A model generated the notes under the pieces. The model was not told the DNA's origin. It searched no databases and saw nothing but the letters and a program-made list of their open reading frames with translations. A stretch of DNA of 64,000 nucleotides from a phage. The translations under genes and the position numbers were made by a program. The first letter of the stretch is position 1, and each line of letters begins with the position of its first letter. Shown piece after piece: positions 1,450 to 39,560 of this stretch. The DNA is taken from assembly GCA_017686895.1 (NCBI GenBank), contig GCA_017686895.1_4521.1. One strand, written 5' to 3'.

Positions 1450-4161
1450 ATGAAAGAATTTTACTTAACGGTTGAACAGATTGGTGATTCAATTTTTGAA
1501 CGTTACATCGATTCTAATGGCCGTGAACGTACTCGTGAAGTAGAATATAAACCATCACTGTTTGCTCATTGTCCAGAAAGTCAGGCTACGAAATATTTCG
1601 ATATCTACGGTAAGCCGTGTACTCGTAAGTTGTTCGCTAATATGCGTGATGCCTCCCAATGGATTAAACGCATGGAAGATATCGGACTTGAAGCACTTGG
1701 CATGGACGATTTCAAATTGGCGTATTTGTCTGACACTTATAACTATGAAATCAAATACGACCATACAAAAATTCGTGTGGCTAACTTCGACATCGAAGTA
1801 ACATCTCCGGATGGGTTCCCTGAGCCGTCACAAGCAAAACATCCAATTGATGCTATCACCCATTATGACTCAATTGATGACAGGTTCTACGTATTTGATC
1901 TATTGAATTCTCCATATGGTAATGTAGAAGAATGGTCTATTGAAATCGCTGCTAAGCTTCAAGAACAAGGTGGTGATGAAGTTCCATCTGAAATTATCGA
2001 TAAAATCATTTATATGCCATTCGATAATGAAAAAGAATTGTTGATGGAATATCTCAACTTCTGGCAACAGAAAACTCCTGTCATTTTGACTGGATGGAAC
2101 GTTGAGTCATTTGATATTCCATATGTGTATAACCGAATCAAGAATATTTTTGGCGAATCTACTGCGAAACGTTTATCACCACATCGTAAAACTCGTGTTA
2201 AAGTTATCGAAAACATGTATGGTTCTCGTGAAATCATTACATTGTTCGGTATCTCTGTTCTTGATTATATCGACCTTTACAAAAAATTCTCTTTCACAAA
2301 CCAACCGTCGTATTCTCTGGATTACATTTCAGAATTTGAATTGAATGTCGGTAAACTGAAATATGACGGTCCTATTTCTAAACTTCGTGAAAGTAATCAC
2401 CAACGATATATTTCTTATAACATTATCGACGTGTATCGTGTATTGCAAATTGATGCTAAACGCCAGTTCATCAACTTGAGTTTGGACATGGGTTATTATG
2501 CTAAGATACAGATTCAATCTGTGTTTAGCCCAATTAAAACATGGGATGCTATTATTTTTAATAGCCTTAAAGAGCAGAACAAGGTGATTCCACAAGGTCG
2601 TTCTCACCCGGTTCAACCTTATCCTGGCGCTTTTGTTAAGGAACCTATTCCAAATCGATACAAATATGTAATGAGTTTCGACCTTACATCTCTGTATCCA
2701 AGTATTATTCGCCAAGTGAATATTAGCCCAGAAACAATAGCAGGAACGTTTAAAGTAGCTCCATTGCATGATTATATTAACGCAATCGCTGAACGTCCTT
2801 CAGATGTGTACAGTTGCTCTCCTAACGGCATGATGTATTATAAAGACCGTGACGGTGTAGTTCCAACCGAAATCACCAAGGTCTTTAATCAACGTAAAGA
2901 ACATAAAGGTTATATGCTTGCTGCTCAACGTAACGGTGAAATAATTAAAGAGGCATTGCATAATCCTAATCTTTCTGTTGATGAACCATTAGATGTTGAT
3001 TATCGTTTCGACTTCACTGACGAGATTAAAGAAAAGATTAAAAAGTTGTCTGCTAAATCTCTTAATGAAATGTTGTTTAGAGCTCAACGTACTGAAGTTG
3101 CAGGTATGACTGCCCAAATTAACCGTAAATTGCTCATCAACTCGCTTTATGGTGCACTTGGCAACGTTTGGTTCCGTTATTACGATTTGCGTAATGCTAC
3201 TGCAATCACAACATTTGGTCAAATGGCTTTACAATGGATTGAACGTAAAGTTAATGAATATCTGAATGAAGTTTGTGGTACAGAAGGTGAAGCTTTCGTT
3301 CTTTATGGTGATACAGACTCTATTTACGTATCTGCTGATAAAATTATCGATAAGGTTGGTGAATCTAAATTCCGTGATACCAACCATTGGGTAGACTTCT
3401 TAGATAAGTTCGCACGTGAACGTATGGAACCAGCTATTGATAAAGGTTTCCGTGAAATGTGTGAATACATGAACAATAAACAACACTTAATGTTCATGGA
3501 CCGAGAAGCTATCGCTGGTCCTCCGCTTGGTTCTAAAGGTATTGGTGGATTCTGGACTGGTAAGAAACGTTATGCATTAAACGTGTGGGATATGGAAGGA
3601 ACTAGATACGCTGAGCCTAAACTCAAAATCATGGGTCTAGAGACTCAGAAATCTTCGACCCCTAAAGCAGTACAGAAAGCTCTTAAAGAATGTATTCGTC
3701 GTATGCTTCAAGAAGGTGAAGAATCATTACAAGAATATTTTAAAGAGTTTGAAAAAGAATTCCGTCAATTGAATTATATTAGCATCGCGTCGGTATCTTC
3801 TGCGAATAACATTGCTAAATATGATGTAGGTGGATTCCCTGGTCCTAAATGTCCGTTCCATATTCGTGGAATTCTGACATATAACCGAGCTATCAAAGGT
3901 AATATTGATGCTCCACAAGTTGTAGAAGGTGAAAAAGTATATGTTCTGCCTTTACGTGAAGGAAACCCATTCGGTGATAAATGTATCGCATGGCCTTCTG
4001 GTACTGAAATCACAGATTTAATTAAAGACGACGTACTTCATTGGATGGACTACACTGTTCTCCTTGAGAAGACATTTATTAAACCACTTGAAGGATTCAC
4101 ATCAGCAGCGAAACTCGATTACGAGAAGAAAGCATCTCTGTTCGATATGTTCGATTTTTGA
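1450..4161 (+). CDS. 43: DNA polymerase gp43 (family B)
   Basis: 903 aa; sequence matches recalled RB69 gp43 (MKEFYLTVEQIGDSIFERYIDSNGRERTREVEYKPSLFAHCPES..., exo motifs FDIEV and YNIIDV, YGDTDS, KKRY). Confidence 0.97.
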   Translation: MKEFYLTVEQIGDSIFERYIDSNGRERTREVEYKPSLFAHCPESQATKYFDIYGKPCTRKLFANMRDASQWIKRMEDIGLEALGMDDFKLAYLSDTYNYEIKYDHTKIRVANFDIEVTSPDGFPEPSQAKHPIDAITHYDSIDDRFYVFDLLNSPYGNVEEWSIEIAAKLQEQGGDEVPSEIIDKIIYMPFDNEKELLMEYLNFWQQKTPVILTGWNVESFDIPYVYNRIKNIFGESTAKRLSPHRKTRVKVIENMYGSREIITLFGISVLDYIDLYKKFSFTNQPSYSLDYISEFELNVGKLKYDGPISKLRESNHQRYISYNIIDVYRVLQIDAKRQFINLSLDMGYYAKIQIQSVFSPIKTWDAIIFNSLKEQNKVIPQGRSHPVQPYPGAFVKEPIPNRYKYVMSFDLTSLYPSIIRQVNISPETIAGTFKVAPLHDYINAIAERPSDVYSCSPNGMMYYKDRDGVVPTEITKVFNQRKEHKGYMLAAQRNGEIIKEALHNPNLSVDEPLDVDYRFDFTDEIKEKIKKLSAKSLNEMLFRAQRTEVAGMTAQINRKLLINSLYGALGNVWFRYYDLRNATAITTFGQMALQWIERKVNEYLNEVCGTEGEAFVLYGDTDSIYVSADKIIDKVGESKFRDTNHWVDFLDKFARERMEPAIDKGFREMCEYMNNKQHLMFMDREAIAGPPLGSKGIGGFWTGKKRYALNVWDMEGTRYAEPKLKIMGLETQKSSTPKAVQKALKECIRRMLQEGEESLQEYFKEFEKEFRQLNYISIASVSSANNIAKYDVGGFPGPKCPFHIRGILTYNRAIKGNIDAPQVVEGEKVYVLPLREGNPFGDKCIAWPSGTEITDLIKDDVLHWMDYTVLLEKTFIKPLEGFTSAAKLDYEKKASLFDMFDF

Positions 4162-4201: not shown

Positions 4202-4837
4202 ATGAAAACTACACCAATCACTATCGCTATTGACGCAATCGTAAAACAAGCTTCTTCTTTGGCTACTATGGCCAAAGTAATTAGTCAAAACCCTGCTCGT
4301 TATAATGCTATTCTAGAAACTCTTCGACGCCCTGGACTGAGTAATTATGAAAGCCGAGTAATTATTACAGGTGTTGGTAAGAACGCTAATATCGCAACTA
4401 AAGCTTCCGAGACTTTTGCTTCACTAGGTATTCCTAGCATGTATTTGAACACCGGGCATTATTCTCATGGCGACGCAGGGTTTATTGCACCTAATGATGT
4501 ATTAGTTCACATCAGTCGTTCTGGTAAGACTGAAGAAATGATAGGTGTTGCTAAACATCTTCGTATGATTCGTCCTCAGGTTAAACAGATTCTGTTACAT
4601 TGTAACCCTGACATTCCGCAAGAATACGAAGCTCTTTTTGATTATACGTTCTGTACAGGCATCGCGGTAGAGGTTGATGAGAATTCTCTGGCTCCGACCA
4701 TGTCCACTACATTGTTGTTAGCGCTTATCGATACGTTTGCTATCAACCTTTCGTCTGAACGTGGATTTACCTCTAATGACTTCCTTAAGTTCCACCCTGG
4801 TGGTGCACTAGGTGCCATGTTACGAGGCGAACAATGA
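4202..4837 (+). CDS. SIS-domain sugar-phosphate isomerase, arabinose-5-phosphate isomerase (KdsD/GutQ)-like
   Basis: SIS motifs VGKNANIATKASETF, HGDAGF, VLVHISRSGKTEE resemble KdsD-type API rather than GmhA. Confidence 0.7.
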   Translation: MKTTPITIAIDAIVKQASSLATMAKVISQNPARYNAILETLRRPGLSNYESRVIITGVGKNANIATKASETFASLGIPSMYLNTGHYSHGDAGFIAPNDVLVHISRSGKTEEMIGVAKHLRMIRPQVKQILLHCNPDIPQEYEALFDYTFCTGIAVEVDENSLAPTMSTTLLLALIDTFAINLSSERGFTSNDFLKFHPGGALGAMLRGEQ

Positions 4838-4977
4838 AAGCAATAACAATAGGACTTTTACTATTGATGCTTGTCATGACTATCTACTGGAGCTTAACGG
4901 CTCCAGTAATGATTCCGACTCTTATAATCGGATGGATTATGATTGGACTACAAACAAAGTATGAATGCTTTAACTAG
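4834..4977 (+). CDS. Small hydrophobic protein (47 aa), not in ORF track
   Basis: ATG overlaps the upstream TGA (ATGA coupling); translation MKAITIGLLLLMLVMTIYWSLTAPVMIPTLIIGWIMIGLQTKYECFN is almost entirely membrane-like. Confidence 0.35.
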   Translation: MKAITIGLLLLMLVMTIYWSLTAPVMIPTLIIGWIMIGLQTKYECFN

Positions 4978-35922: not shown

Positions 35923-36399
35923 ATGAAAGTGAAGATTGCTGACACTGCTCGGTATTCACTAAGCCAAAATCCAGACCAAAACAAAGAAGATGTAGTTCGA
36001 CGTTGTAAGGTTGCAGTCTTTGCAGAGTATGTAGTAGCAAATTGGCTAGACGGATATGTTAATAAAGGTATTGAAGATGTAGAAGACCCGTACACGTATG
36101 CATGGGACGTGTTAGCCCATCCCAAATATTGTGGAATTCGTGTAGAAGTCAAGACACATCAGATGGATTCTAAATGGATTTCTGTTACCACAGGATACAG
36201 TGGTGATTATCCGGGTGGCAACGGAATCAACATAGGGCCCTTCCTTAATCATCGAGTCGCTGACTGTATTATTATATTGAATGTCAAAGAAACCTCACCT
36301 GACGTCTTCTCTTATTCTATAAAGTTCGTTGGAGACCATGAAGACCTAAAGAAAATCGTCCGCAAGAGCAACTACAACGGGTGGTATCTTCATCTTTAA
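35923..36399 (+). CDS. Hypothetical protein (denB position)
   Basis: 158 aa from ATG 35923; the upstream extension to 35779 would overlap the previous ORF by over 120 nt. Confidence 0.35.
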   Translation: MKVKIADTARYSLSQNPDQNKEDVVRRCKVAVFAEYVVANWLDGYVNKGIEDVEDPYTYAWDVLAHPKYCGIRVEVKTHQMDSKWISVTTGYSGDYPGGNGINIGPFLNHRVADCIIILNVKETSPDVFSYSIKFVGDHEDLKKIVRKSNYNGWYLHL

Positions 36400-36411
36400 T
36401 TTCATAAAAGT

Positions 36412-36441
36412 GTTTACAACTAAGTAGGACTATGATATAGT
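36412..36441 (+). promoter_or_regulatory. Early-type promoter GTTTAC-N18-TATAGT
   Basis: Followed by AGTCCTATC box. Confidence 0.45.
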
Positions 36442-36467
36442 AGTCCTATCTAAAAGAGGATAACATC

Positions 36468-36731
36468 ATGAAATTTAAATTTTTCTACGCAAAACATAAA
36501 GTGACTGGTGAGTTTGTTTCAATGTACAACACTGCAGATGACGAAGGGATGATTTATACTCATTTAGGTCTATCTCATTGGGACTCAGACGTGCCTTATA
36601 TGTCATCCGAAGCCGAAATAACTCGTTTAGTTAATGGACATATGAATGACCATTTTGGTGTTATTCTTTCTAAAGACCTTAAAGAGGTTATCAACAAAGG
36701 ATATATGGAACTCGCGGAAGTTGAGATATGA
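36468..36731 (+). CDS. Hypothetical protein
   Basis: 87-aa ORF. Confidence 0.5.
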   Translation: MKFKFFYAKHKVTGEFVSMYNTADDEGMIYTHLGLSHWDSDVPYMSSEAEITRLVNGHMNDHFGVILSKDLKEVINKGYMELAEVEI

Positions 36732-36923
36732 GCTCTAAAATGTGGATTGGAATATGGTTGCTTAGTATCCCAATGATTTGTATAATATTTTCAATTGTGT
36801 TGAGGTACTTATGAAAAATGCACTTCTTATTGTACTAAAAACAATTTGTGATACTGGTTTTTACATTGCATGTTCGTTCACTGGAACATGGCTGGCTTTA
36901 ACATATTTTAATGTAATTTAATT

Positions 36924-36953
36924 GTTTACATCATGGTAGGATTATGGTATAGT
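36924..36953 (+). promoter_or_regulatory. Early-type promoter GTTTAC-N18-TATAGT
   Basis: Followed by AGTCCTATCAA box. Confidence 0.45.
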
Positions 36954-36981
36954 AGTCCTATCAAAACACGAGGAATACAAA

Positions 36982-37182
36982 ATGGCTAAGCTTTTTAAAG
37001 ATGTTGAAATTGGTGAAAAATTTGTCCTGAATAATGGTCAGCAGCTTATTCGTGTAGCTTCTATAGCCGGACAAACTCATAACTGCATCGCCCCAACGTG
37101 TTGGACCCGATTCTTTATTGAGGATGACACCGAATGTTTAACCGTTGAAGAGCTTTTTGAACGTTCTGATATGACCGAATAA
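36982..37182 (+). CDS. Hypothetical protein
   Basis: 66-aa ORF. Confidence 0.45.
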   Translation: MAKLFKDVEIGEKFVLNNGQQLIRVASIAGQTHNCIAPTCWTRFFIEDDTECLTVEELFERSDMTE

Positions 37183-37184
37183 AA

Positions 37185-37221
37185 TTGTACAAACTCTTGA
37201 GAGCAGAGTATAATGCTCTCA
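37185..37221 (+). promoter_or_regulatory. Promoter-like element TTGTAC-N18-TATAAT with flanking inverted repeat
   Basis: TGAGAGC (37198-37204) and GCTCTCA (37215-37221) bracket the -10. Confidence 0.4.
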
Positions 37222-37258
37222 TGGATTACAAAAACATTAATCAATTGAGGAAATTAGC

Positions 37259-37705
37259 ATGTCCAAATATTTAACTCGTAAAGACCTTCTGGCCGTTGGC
37301 GGTGAAGTTGTTGCAGTAGTTCGTAATGGTGAATACGGTTCCGAAGTTTCTAAAGAGTTTCGTTCTCGTGAAGGTTTTTACTTCTTTGTTAAAGGTTCAT
37401 CTGACTGGCGACAAGTAGCAGCACGATTCTTTGTAGGACGTCAACGTTCTAAACAAGGGTTAGATGCAATTCTTTCTCACATTCGTCAAGGCCGTTCACA
37501 ACTAGCTCGTACCATGGGTACTAATAATATTGAATATGACGTAATTTTTGTTTCAGCCAAGAACATGAAACCTCTGACCACTGGTTATGGTAAAGGTCAA
37601 TTGGCTCTGGCATTCACTCGCAATCATTCATCAGAATATCAAACACTCACTGAAATGAACCGTCTCCTGGCTGATAATTTCAAATTCATTCTGCAGAGTT
37701 ACTAA
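37259..37705 (+). CDS. ndd: Nucleoid disruption protein Ndd
   Basis: 148 aa; FYVGNQRSKQG...LSHIRQ.RSQLART...[19 protein letters not shown] matches recalled T4 Ndd. Confidence 0.8.
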
Positions 37706-38048
37706 TTTATATAGGCCTATTAAGTTAGGCCTTTAATTTATTTTTGAGGTAATTAAAATGGTAGCATGGATTATTGCATTGCTGTGTTGGTCGTTTTTAT
37801 TCGTTAGCACTTTAGTTACAGGCGAAACAACAGTATTTCAACAGGCCGTATCACAAGGTACCTTAGCGGTCTTAGCTCTTATTAACGTGTTAAAAGGCGA
37901 GTAATGATTAAGAAAATCTTAGCAGGAGCCTTCGGGCTCTTGTTGTTGCTTACGGTTCTGTATTATGGTGTGATGTTTGGACTAATCCAAGTGGTGCTTT
38001 TCATTTCAGATGTTATAATGGTTATTCGTTCATTAATATGGTGAAAAT

Positions 38049-39374
38049 ATGCAATTGAATTCTCGTAATCTAAAAAGTATTATTGATAACGAAGCCTTAG
38101 CATATGCGATGTACACCGTTGAAAACCGTGCAATCCCAAACATGATTGATGGATTTAAGCCGGTTCAACGTTTTGTTGTTCATCGGGCATTAGATTTGGC
38201 TCGTGGTAATAAAGAAAAATTTCATAAACTTGCGTCAATTGCAGGAGGTGTTGCAGATTTAGGTTATCATCATGGCGAATCTTCTGCACAAGATGCAGGT
38301 GCATTGATGGCTAATACGTGGAATAACAACTATCCACTGTTAGACGGCCAGGGCAACTTTGGTTCTAGAACAGTCCAAAAAGCTGCAGCATCTCGTTATA
38401 TTTTTGCTCGTGTAAGTAAAAATTTCTATAATGTCTATAAAGATACTGAATATGCTCCAGCACATGAAGATAAAGAACACGTTCCACCAAAATTCTATCT
38501 TCCTATTATTCCGACAGTTCTTTTGAATGGCGTCTCTGGTATTGCAACCGGTTACGCAACAAATATTCTGCCTCATAGTTTTAAATCAGTTAAAAAGGCT
38601 GTATTACAAGCTCTTCAAGGTAAAAATGTCACTAAGCCAAAAGTTGAATTCCCAGAATTCCGTGGTGAAGTACATGAAGTTGATGGGCGTTATGAGATTC
38701 ACGGAACATATAAGTTCACATCTCGCACTCAAATGCAGATAACTGAAATCCCATATAAATTCGACCGTGAAACGTATGTGAGTAAGGTTCTTGACCCGTT
38801 GGAAGACAAAGGTCTAATCTCATGGGAAGATGATTGTGGTGAACACGGCTTTGGGTTTAAGGTGAAGTTCCGTAAAGAGTACTCGCTTCCAGATGACGAA
38901 GAGCTACGTCATGAAAAAATCATGAAAGATTTTAGTCTCATCGAACGTCGTTCACAAAACATCACAGTGATTAATGAAAAGGGTAAATTGGCGGTCTACG
39001 ATAACGTAGTGGACTTAATCAAAGATTTTGTTGAAGTCCGTAAGACTTACGTTCAGAAACGTATTGATAACAAAATCCTTGAATCTGAAAAAGCATTTAA
39101 ACTTGCTTTTGCTAAGGCACACTTCATCAAAAAAGTTATCAGTGGCGAAATTGTGATTCAGGGCAAGACTCGTAAAGCTTTGACTGAAGAGCTAGCACAA
39201 ATCGAAATGTATAAAGAACATGTCGATAAACTGGTAGGTCTTAACATCTTCCATATCACTTCCGACGAAGCACGGAAACTAGCAGAAGAAGCTAAAGCTA
39301 AGAAAGAAGAAAATGAGTATTGGAAGTCTACTGATGTTGTGACAGAGTACACTAAAGACTTGGAGGCACTTTGA
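38049..39374 (+). CDS. 52: DNA topoisomerase II medium subunit gp52 (GyrA-like)
   Basis: 441 aa; starts MQLN.R.LKSIIDNEALAYAMYTVENRAIPNMIDGFKPVQRF as in T4 gp52. Confidence 0.93.
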   Translation: MQLNSRNLKSIIDNEALAYAMYTVENRAIPNMIDGFKPVQRFVVHRALDLARGNKEKFHKLASIAGGVADLGYHHGESSAQDAGALMANTWNNNYPLLDGQGNFGSRTVQKAAASRYIFARVSKNFYNVYKDTEYAPAHEDKEHVPPKFYLPIIPTVLLNGVSGIATGYATNILPHSFKSVKKAVLQALQGKNVTKPKVEFPEFRGEVHEVDGRYEIHGTYKFTSRTQMQITEIPYKFDRETYVSKVLDPLEDKGLISWEDDCGEHGFGFKVKFRKEYSLPDDEELRHEKIMKDFSLIERRSQNITVINEKGKLAVYDNVVDLIKDFVEVRKTYVQKRIDNKILESEKAFKLAFAKAHFIKKVISGEIVIQGKTRKALTEELAQIEMYKEHVDKLVGLNIFHITSDEARKLAEEAKAKKEENEYWKSTDVVTEYTKDLEAL

Positions 39375-39450
39375 GTGCCCTAGCCTTAGGATTTCTCAGT
39401 GCAATAGCTGCACTAGTGATTTGGCTGTATTGGTTGGACAATCATGATTA

Positions 39451-39470
39451 GGGAGCTTCGGCTCCCTTTT
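39451..39470 (+). terminator. Rho-independent terminator (GGGAGC-TTCG-GCTCCC plus TTTT)
   Basis: Perfect stem, UUCG loop, T-run. Confidence 0.7.
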
Positions 39471-39492: not shown

Positions 39493-39521
39493 GTTTACAT
39501 GTGCTTCAAACGTGATATTAT
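39493..39521 (+). promoter_or_regulatory. Early-type promoter GTTTAC-N17-TATTAT with TGCTTCA in the spacer
   Basis: Followed by AGACCTATCAAAAC; near-duplicate of the promoter at 39814. Confidence 0.55.
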
Positions 39522-39560
39522 AGACCTATCAAAACAAAACAACCAAATTGGAGAAATAAA

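Follow-up and report, generated by a model that had tools for sequence, protein, structure and literature searches.

Small membrane-protein genes of the kind described here are already known in T4-like phages. T4 phage that carries the sa-delta-9 deletion lacks 52.1, ac, stp, ndd, ndd.1-6 and denB but is still viable (PMC6071114); hence, genes of this 'D region' are dispensable. Stimulation of phosphatidylglycerol synthesis is lost in the deletion (PMC6071114). Functional data are confined to Ac, and to T4 only. The wild-type T4 Ac allele confers sensitivity to acridines, loss of ac yields acriflavine-resistant phage, and E. coli cells that express T4 ac become sensitised (bioRxiv 10.1101/2025.06.30.662393; PMC13250531). 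Acriflavine resistance is also caused by the G38R substitution in T4 Ac, and it has been proposed, as a proposal only, that Ac blocks efflux through AcrAB-TolC so that the dye accumulates (bioRxiv 10.1101/2025.06.30.662393). Other small membrane proteins that are clustered in T-even phages, T4 Imm and Imm.1 among them, offer a broader likeness: they are early-expressed, non-essential and hydrophobic. Imm differs in having a defined role in superinfection exclusion.

The window analysed here (64,000 nucleotides of phage DNA; GenBank assembly GCA_017686895.1, contig GCA_017686895.1_4521.1) comes, as judged by sequence comparison, from an RB69-like (Mosigvirus) T4-type phage, and the region under study is 96-97% identical to RB69-group phages. 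An earlier note on this DNA had pointed to strings of coupled, hydrophobic micro-ORFs missed by a length cutoff. It is very probable that the four micro-ORFs are real, previously catalogued accessory genes, expressed as coupled strings and with products in the host inner membrane. In order, they would be Ndd.6, a 36-aa gene that is specific to Mosigvirus and fills the ndd.5 slot, Ac and gp52.1, and they would belong to the non-essential denB-ndd-ac-52 block of T-even-type phages. All five ORFs considered (the four micro-ORFs and a 47-aa ORF near the sugar genes) match phage protein families, the four micro-ORFs with E values of 4e-11 to 1e-29. HX01 annotates all four micro-ORFs as CDS, and RB69, SA79RD and T4 do so for some. 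The word 'missed' is therefore inappropriate, as T4 and RB69-group records have long listed ndd.6, ac and 52.1.

Comparative data were obtained mostly from GenBank phage records, and scans of IMG/VR and metagenomes (Ndd anchor, exact 22-mer) contributed about six additional loci only. None of the peptides is represented by an NCBIfam model, and Pfam covers 52.1 alone. When the small peptides were compared all against all with phmmer, significant matches were found within families only, and no paralogy was detected among them. An Rfam scan of positions 36300-38200 (E up to 1) matched no RNA family, and an RNA-gene explanation of this segment was dropped on that basis.

Features of the two strings and of the additional small ORFs (positions in the window)
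Feature	Position	Strand	Remarks
47-aa hydrophobic ORF	4834..4977	+	phrog_3610, E 2e-26
Early-type sigma-70 promoter-like site	36413..36441	+	TTTACA-17-TATAGT, TG-extended
RB69ORF270c homologue, 87 aa, soluble	36468..36731	+	phrog_2390, E 1e-42
Ndd.6 homologue, 28 aa	36728..36814	+	phrog_8851, E 3.7e-11
36-aa hydrophobic ORF, MKNALLIVLKTICDTGFYIACSFTGTWLALTYFNVI	36811..36921	+	phrog_18561, E 3.6e-29
Second copy of promoter-plus-hairpin repeat	36925..36953	+	repeat 36907-36966, hairpin 36934-36963
Terminator-like hairpin and T-rich tail, between ndd and ac	37713..37732	+	terminator annotated in SA79RD
Ac, 48 aa, 'acridine resistance' protein	37758..37904	+	phrog_2501, E 6.7e-22
gp52.1, 46 aa, DUF7396	37904..38044	+	PF24129, 79.9 bits vs cut-off 27, full length 1-46; phrog_3595
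MotA-box middle promoter for gene 52	37995..38019	+	TGCTT, 12-nt spacer, TATAAT; within 52.1 codons 31-39
Gene 52, topoisomerase II medium subunit	38049..39374	+	anchors the ac/52.1 string downstream
Candidate fifth micro-ORF, 26 aa, TTG start	39371..39451	+	GGAGG 5 nt upstream, TTGA overlap with gene 52 stop

Positions given previously for the 28-, 48-, 46- and 47-aa ORFs were exact. The second micro-ORF had been misplaced: it was given as 36809-36917 and 35 aa, but its ATG lies at 36811, its stop codon ends at 36921 and it encodes 36 aa. The description of the products as near-pure hydrophobic peptides suits Ndd.6 and 52.1 (GRAVY 1.61 and 1.86; best 19-residue Kyte-Doolittle windows 2.62 and 2.52) and is a poorer fit for the 36-aa ORF (1.09 and 1.59) and Ac (1.28 and 2.34). 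The AF2 models are of all-helical peptides.

Translational coupling, as claimed before, is consistent with the geometry of the genes. ATGA overlaps join the stop of ORF270c to the start of the 28-aa ORF (36728-36731) and the stop of the latter to the start of the 36-aa ORF (36811-36814); a TAATG overlap (37902-37906) joins ac and 52.1, and the gap between 52.1 and gene 52 is 4 nt. A GAGG/GGAG-like motif is found 5-10 nt upstream of every start. From this arrangement of overlaps and Shine-Dalgarno motifs we infer coupling itself.

The first string is preceded by a 60-nt repeat (36395-36454) that contains the early-type promoter-like site and a hairpin (36424-36449). A second copy, whose hairpin has a dG of -14.6 kcal/mol (z = -4.4), ends the ORF270c/Ndd.6/36-aa cassette before ndd.1. 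A similar layout is seen in published PeSL promoter/stem-loop cassettes (PMC2839356, PMC4122927). The sigma-70 early promoter would drive ORF270c, and ribosomes would re-initiate at the ATGA overlaps to produce Ndd.6 and then the 36-aa peptide. ORF270c, the first gene of the string, shows an omega of about 0.09 (S=25, N=9).

The second gene aligns in full length with its family (residues 1-28 on profile positions 1-28 of phrog_8851) and is 54% identical to T4 Ndd.6 (phmmer E 7e-9). Both proteins have 28 aa and the IP[MV]IC motif, and both genes run through an ATGA overlap into the next small ORF. Differences are that the gene is coupled here to the upstream ORF270c, which T4 lacks, and that the following 36-aa ORF is unrelated to T4 Ndd.5. 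When the T4, VR20 and QL01 homologues of Ndd.6 were aligned with it, a conserved motif, W-x3-W-x3-IP-[MV]-IC-x2-F, was seen in a gene located downstream of denB; a single transmembrane helix is predicted. Ndd.6 is intact in all 18 Mosigvirus sequences, with a pattern of changes (S=6, N=2, P=0.001) that is specific to the annotated frame. Between genera, its omega (0.19-0.37, Nei-Gojobori) is comparable to that of ndd (0.25-0.29). HX01 lists the homologue as gp199; the 87-nt gene is absent from the RB69 record, and homologues are absent from the VR20 and QL01 records. Misleading product names ('outer membrane protein', 'acridine resistance protein') are found among these genes.

Ac is annotated in RB69, SA79RD and HX01, and occupies the slot between ndd and 52.1. 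It matches Ac of T4 (phmmer E 5e-7) and of EcS1 (E 3.5e-9). Its likeness to the 51-aa T4 protein includes the PHROG family, the ndd-52.1 slot, a prediction of two helices (2-21 and 24-46 in the AF2 model of the protein studied here) and an S/T-V-F-x-Q-A-x-x-Q-G motif. In the latter, which reads TVFQQAVSQG in this phage, G34 aligns with T4 G38. The allele differs from that of T4 in being only 29% identical overall and three residues shorter; furthermore, this phage carries sugar genes of the arabinosyl-hmC type, whereas T4 uses glucosylation. Within Mosigvirus, omega is about 0.20 (S11/N7, P=0.001) and the signal is specific to the annotated frame; between genera, values range from 0.17 to 0.60 (Nei-Gojobori).

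E. coli AcrZ, an inner-membrane protein of 49 aa, modulates the AcrB efflux pump and aids efflux of some substrates. Ac resembles it in size and in its single-pass or helical membrane character, and this functional analogy lies behind the proposed action of Ac on AcrAB-TolC. The two differ in that AcrZ supports efflux whereas Ac is proposed to block it. No sequence similarity between Ac and AcrZ was found by phmmer (E 1.4-2.6), and homology was rejected because E was above 1. In a database of 5.8 billion proteins, no bacterial homologue of Ac or 52.1 was detected: Ac was found in 4 clusters and 52.1 in 12, all of them from T4-like phages.

The most conserved member of the set is gp52.1. It has the same length as its T4 counterpart (46 aa), is 72% identical to it, shares the invariant YYG...QVVLFISD...SL.W core of DUF7396 and lies likewise upstream of gene 52; no substantial difference was found. 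The gene is present in 888 phage records, and AF2 models its product as one helix (residues 2-45, pLDDT 97). Within Mosigvirus the changes (S5/N7) are too few for significance. Compared with T4, VR20 and QL01, where synonymous sites are saturated, omega is 0.08-0.13 (Nei-Gojobori), comparable to that of gp52 (0.06-0.09).

Our analysis adds the observation that the MotA middle promoter of gene 52 lies within the most conserved 52.1 codons and overlaps the invariant core. The MotA consensus used was the published one (PMC2988021). T4, VR20, QL01 and Potts1 share the nucleotides of this site even at third codon positions; SA79RD annotates a middle promoter there. Part of the conservation of 52.1 is thus due to the embedded promoter. 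Beyond the ndd terminator, a second coupled string would be read as ac, 52.1 and gene 52, with gene 52 also served by its own MotA promoter inside 52.1.

Such an overlap raises an alternative in which DNA or RNA signals are conserved instead of peptides, the frames being translated only as 'coupling leaders' that bring ribosomes to downstream genes or adjust their expression. In this view, 52.1 would serve gene 52, Ndd.6 and the 36-aa ORF would form the tail of the ORF270c message, and the amino acid sequence of the leaders would be irrelevant. Besides the promoter sequence in codons 31-39, this idea finds support in the constant position of 52.1 directly 5' of gene 52, at 4-38 nt in all six genera examined (including T4, VR20, QL01, Potts1 and EcS1), and in the persistence of start/stop overlaps where the upstream partner gene changes in the gene order of relatives. 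We consider it improbable, however, as the LYYGVMFGLIQV segment of 52.1, which lies outside the promoter, is conserved as protein with freely varying codons, and the low omega extends across the entire gene. In addition, Ndd.6 retains IP[MV]IC at 43-54% overall identity, and missense alleles of T4 Ac such as G38R, which confer resistance, prove that the peptide sequence matters. Real peptide-coding genes thus remain the preferred interpretation.

The 36-aa ORF is the member for which that interpretation is most debatable. It aligns in full length with its family (residues 1-36 on profile positions 1-36 of phrog_18561), and tblastn found it in 153 Mosigvirus-type records and in none elsewhere. 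Although it sits in the position of T4 ndd.5, the possibility that it is a diverged Ndd.5 was rejected, as phmmer found no similarity to T4 Ndd.5. Selection on this ORF appears to be weak. Within Mosigvirus, omega is about 0.31 (S=9, N=9, P=0.013), compared with 0.9-1.5 in the other two frames, and the density of variable sites is 0.183 versus 0.267 in adjacent intergenic DNA, that is, evolution is some 1.5 times slower. One in-frame codon deletion was detected, and three of the 18 sequences (PECP20, KAW3E185 and F2) have a frameshift or a lost start; these disruptions could be either homopolymer sequencing errors or real pseudogenisation. Conservation of the reading frames in related phages, which the earlier note had named as a check, is thus found for Ndd.6, Ac and 52.1, and is incomplete for the 36-aa ORF.

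Two other small ORFs deserve mention. The start of the 47-aa ORF overlaps (ATGA) the stop of the gene for arabinose-5-phosphate isomerase (4202-4837). Homologues occur in 764 phage records (gp140 in HX01), and the ORF is homologous to a small one located behind imm in T4-type phages; in T4 itself, the homologue is found in the imm-42 gap and carries no annotation in the reference record. Downstream of gene 52, the candidate fifth micro-ORF is followed by a terminator hairpin. It is open in 150 Mosigvirus records, with 77-92% aa identity, and is hardly ever annotated; QL01 and Potts1 annotate ATG-started counterparts at the same position. A PHROG search gave no match for it.

Could some or all of the frames be chance ORFs? 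T-rich codons in AT-rich DNA mimic hydrophobicity, and relatives may be too close for breakage to have occurred. In agreement with this possibility, off-frame ORFs inside genes of T4 and of the window exceed a GRAVY of 1, the 36-aa ORF is lineage-restricted, with the omega and the disruptions described above, and differences in the TTG-started ORF at 39371-39451 are mostly non-synonymous. The background of the window speaks against it. Twenty ATG micro-ORFs occupy the gaps between its 85 long ORFs, and those with both a Shine-Dalgarno motif and a hydrophobic window above 2.0 are four of the five ORFs highlighted previously, the 36-aa ORF being the exception; in contrast, only 4.5% of 311 off-frame small ORFs within genes reach 2.0. 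This enrichment indicates that the micro-ORFs are beyond chance. Moreover, Ndd.6, Ac and 52.1 are open and alignable across genera with saturated synonymous sites, with omega well below 1; selection is tied to the annotated frame, and every ORF has a Shine-Dalgarno motif and a start/stop overlap. Chance is hence a highly improbable explanation, slightly more so than the conservation of signals discussed above.

Canonical lipoboxes need G, A or S at position -1 (Lgt/LspA substrates). Least probable of all is an outer-membrane or lipoprotein-type nature of Ndd.6, with a signal peptide cut before the conserved Cys, a reading suggested by that Cys after a hydrophobic stretch and by the T4 annotation 'predicted outer membrane protein' (the phrog_8851 label is alike), and rejected on the lipobox motif: P-[MV]-I precedes the Cys, with Ile at -1, which does not match [LVI][ASTVI][GAS]C, while the VR20 and QL01 homologues lack a positively charged N-region, only about 10 residues would be left after cleavage, and the label resembles old localisation-predictor output propagated between records.

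Hence, the presence of small membrane peptides on either side of ndd and beside the sugar cassette, as proposed in the earlier note, agrees with family matches, CDS annotation in relatives and signs of frame-specific purifying selection in four of the five ORFs, and insertion into the membrane is likely from the sequences. At their length and hydrophobicity, the products would have to be alpha-helical peptides that reside in the inner membrane of the host, and their probable mode of action would be to bind and modulate larger host envelope complexes, in the manner of other small membrane proteins from bacteria and phages. Searches for ribosome profiling, proteomics or tagging data on these peptides in T4 and RB69-type phages found none, and the main texts of T4 omics, CRISPRi-ART and HIDEN-SEQ papers yielded nothing on the expression of ndd.6, 52.1 and ac or on their effects on fitness.

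An unlikely speculation is that the strings might be a toolkit of modulators in the style of AcrZ and MgtS, each directed to a different host inner-membrane machine. In such a scheme, gp52.1 could underlie the phosphatidylglycerol phenotype of sa-delta-9, or else tether or regulate the T4-type topoisomerase. If the latter were true, it would link ac, a gene for acridine uptake, with the acridine target encoded next door.

Because the genes are already known, consequences for discovery are small. Short hydrophobic genes are inconsistently annotated across T4-like genomes, and the value of these observations lies in annotation quality. Furthermore, a catalogue that includes evidence of selection ranks the targets for experiments: 52.1 and Ndd.6 come first, and the 36-aa ORF last.

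The micro-ORFs are known, named genes, and there is nothing new in their existence. All have matches in established protein families, and RB69's own record names the 48-aa and 46-aa ORFs Ac and gp52.1. The 28-aa peptide shares 54% identity with T4 ndd.6 and is found by tblastn in 759 phage records. When the positions proposed in the earlier note were compared with an ORF listing and with direct reading, four of the five were borne out. The second ORF had been placed at 36809-36917 with 35 aa, whereas its ATG lies at 36811 and its stop codon ends at 36921, giving 36 aa; this one coordinate error apart, the observation is correct. The proposed translational coupling also holds in its geometry: ATGA overlaps join the RB69ORF270c homologue (ORF270c) to the 28-aa ORF and the latter to the 36-aa ORF, TAATG joins ac to 52.1, and 4 nt separate 52.1 from gene 52. 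A GAGG/GGAG-like motif is found 5-10 nt 5' of every micro-ORF start.

Features of the micro-ORF regions and of comparison loci (window coordinates unless a locus is named; hydropathy, top 19-residue window)
Feature	Position	Match or description	GRAVY	Hydropathy
28-aa ORF (Ndd.6)	36728-36814	phrog_8851, E 3.7e-11	1.61	2.62
36-aa ORF	36811-36921	phrog_18561, E 3.6e-29	1.09	1.59
48-aa ORF (Ac)	37758-37904	phrog_2501, E 6.7e-22	1.28	2.34
46-aa ORF (52.1)	37904-38044	phrog_3595; Pfam DUF7396, 79.9 bits (cut-off 27)	1.86	2.52
47-aa ORF	4834-4977	phrog_3610, E 2e-26		
60-nt element, two copies	36395-36454; 36907-36966	80% identical; flank the ORF270c/Ndd.6/36-aa unit		
60-nt element, partial third copy	39513-39536			
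Terminator-like hairpin	37713-37732	between ndd and ac		
MotA-type middle promoter for gene 52	37995-38019	inside 52.1 codons 31-39; TGCTT 37995-37999, 12-nt spacer, TATAAT 38014-38019		
Candidate 26-aa hydrophobic ORF	39371-39451	TTG start		
Unannotated Ndd.6 homologues, 25 aa	VR20 (L012) 566-643; QL01 (L013) 933-1010	MWCLIWM.CIPVICVCFSLLL...		
'ac slot' genes of two non-Ac families	L012 2417-2581; L013 2373-2534; L014 2343-2483, 2134-2319; L015 2442-2600, 2132-2308	small, hydrophobic		
T4 imm-42 gap ORF, 49 aa	AF158101.6 (L030) 1728-1877, minus strand	ATGA overlap with imm stop		

Many spurious frames appear hydrophobic in AT-rich phage DNA, and for this reason the whole window was scanned. 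Between 85 non-overlapping long ORFs, 20 ATG micro-ORFs of 20-59 aa were detected; the only ones among them to have both an SD motif and a hydrophobic window exceeding 2.0 are four of the five ORFs under study, and the fifth, the 36-aa ORF, lies below that threshold. Just 4.5% of off-frame small ORFs inside genes (n=311) reach 2.0.

Selection was examined at two scales. Within Mosigvirus, the two alternative frames of Ndd.6, the 36-aa ORF and Ac gave omega values of ~0.6-5. Judged from these substitution patterns, Ndd.6, Ac and 52.1 are true protein-coding genes. The reading of the micro-ORFs as small coupled membrane peptides is supported by known families, by annotation in relatives and by selection. 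As to conservation in related phages, a check named in the earlier note, Ndd.6 is unbroken in 18/18 Mosigvirus sequences, and the 36-aa ORF presents three disruptions among 18.

Selection on the micro-ORFs (between genera: Nei-Gojobori, window versus T4, VR20 and QL01, or versus T4 and EcS1 for Ac, with synonymous sites near saturation; within Mosigvirus: minimum substitution counts, S and N, in 18 distinct sequences for Ndd.6 and the 36-aa ORF and 9 for Ac and 52.1)
Gene	Omega between genera	Comparable neighbour	S	N	Omega within	P
Ndd.6	0.19-0.37	ndd, 0.25-0.29	6	2	~0.08	0.001
36-aa ORF			9	9	~0.31	0.013
Ac	0.17-0.60	none	11	7	~0.20	0.001
52.1	0.08-0.13	gp52, 0.06-0.09	5	7	~0.45	not significant

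The 36-aa ORF is probably a genuine gene, though a young and dispensable one under weak constraint. By tblastn it is confined to ~153 Mosigvirus-type records, many of which annotate it as hypothetical. It fills the T4 ndd.5 slot with the same ATGA overlap, and direct comparison detected zero sequence similarity to T4 Ndd.5. Its density of variable sites in Mosigvirus is 0.183, compared with 0.089 in Ndd.6 and 0.267 in adjacent intergenic DNA. One of the 18 sequences (S143_2) has a clean in-frame codon deletion. In PECP20 and KAW3E185 the frame is broken by a -1 frameshift within a T-run, and in F2 an extra A after the ATG abolishes the start; these three single-base indels in homopolymer runs may be either sequencing errors or true loss. 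KAW3E185 carries a further 5-nt duplication at the end of the ORF.

Ndd.6 appears to be a single hydrophobic span with a conserved IP[MV]IC motif at its centre. The label 'outer membrane protein' attached to T4 Ndd.6 and phrog_8851 is unsupported: the peptide lacks a lipobox, since the Cys is preceded at -1 by Ile, some homologues have no charged N-region, and there is no basis for a beta-barrel. The VR20 and QL01 homologues are missing from the annotation of both records; at 78 nt, they are likely to fall under the minimum length of gene callers.

The 1.7 kb between 36400 and 38100 is 96-97% identical to ~150 RB69-group (Mosigvirus) T4-type phages. The gene order, taken from the annotated phages RB69, SA79RD and HX01, is rIIB, ORF272c, denB, ORF270c, 28-aa ORF, 36-aa ORF, ndd.1, ndd, ac, 52.1, gene 52, motA. 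The T4 order is denB, ndd.6, ndd.5, ndd.4, ndd.3, ndd.2a, ndd.2, ndd.1, ndd, stp, ac, 52.1, 52. In T-even phages the denB-ndd-ac-52 block is the non-essential region classically known as the 'D region'. In the genera compared, the ndd-to-gene 52 interval always holds 2-4 small hydrophobic genes whose families vary by genus, and 52.1 is their constant last member. Ac is found there in T4, RB69-type phages and EcS1. Two further families occur in the 'ac slot', the space from ndd to 52.1: a 'GAWVP' family of 46-54 aa with the motif G[AV]W[VA]P (VR20, QL01, Potts1, EcS1) and a family of 58-61 aa (Potts1, EcS1). EcS1 has Ac plus both others.

Each copy of the 60-nt element is made of an early-type promoter-like site (TTTACA-17-TATAGT) and a 10-12-bp hairpin (dG -13 to -15 kcal/mol). 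The element resembles PeSL promoter/stem-loop cassettes, for which a role in the modular shuffling of T4-type genomes has been proposed (PMC2839356, PMC4122927); however, its hairpin overlaps the -10 box and looks unlike the published stem-loop-plus-promoter layout. Shuffling of the PeSL type would fit the variation, between genera, of gene content in the slot that the two full copies flank.

AF2 predicts gp52.1 as one unbroken helix (residues 2-45, pLDDT 97, 13 sequences). The promoter embedded in the gene fits the MotA middle-promoter consensus (PMC2988021) and is marked as a middle promoter in the SA79RD annotation. Nucleotide-level conservation of this segment extends to third codon positions in T4, VR20, QL01 and Potts1. 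The invariant VLFISDVIM core of gp52.1 is translated from it and is therefore under dual constraint, as peptide and as promoter. Just upstream, the LYYGVMFGLIQV segment shows conservation at the protein level only.

Other small ORFs were also detected. The 26-aa candidate has GGAGG 5 nt upstream, its TTG start overlaps the stop of gene 52 (TTGA), and a terminator hairpin follows. Its frame stays open in 150 records of Mosigvirus (77-92% aa identity), which almost never annotate it, and its constraint looks weak. In QL01 and Potts1 this position is taken by small hydrophobic ORFs that begin with ATG and are annotated. The imm-42 gap is unannotated in the T4 reference record, and its 49-aa ORF is homologous to the 47-aa ORF of the window (764 phage records). 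The T4 homologue follows imm, while the 47-aa ORF follows an arabinose-5-phosphate isomerase gene.

Among the micro-ORFs, functional data exist for Ac alone, from T4. Loss or missense mutation of T4 ac (e.g. G38R) confers acriflavine resistance, and expression of ac in E. coli confers sensitivity to acriflavine and ampicillin; the authors propose that Ac enters the membrane and blocks efflux through AcrAB-TolC (bioRxiv 10.1101/2025.06.30.662393), an idea restated in PMC13250531. The label 'acridine resistance protein' looks misleading, as the wild-type allele gives sensitivity. AF2 predicts two helices in Ac (2-21 and 24-46, pLDDT 76), matching the ESMFold model of that preprint (bioRxiv 10.1101/2025.06.30.662393). 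The Gly at T4 G38 is kept as G34, inside TVFQQAVSQG. A search for sequence similarity between Ac and AcrZ found none. The analogy with AcrZ, the known small protein that binds AcrB, is functional and not sequence-based.

Searches of phage records and protein databases found 52.1 and Ac homologues in T4-like phages only, and because of this restriction comparative genomics adds no functional clue. The T4 deletion sa-delta-9, which removes 52.1, ac, stp, ndd, ndd.1-6 and denB, leaves the phage viable and abolishes phage-induced stimulation of phosphatidylglycerol synthesis (PMC6071114).
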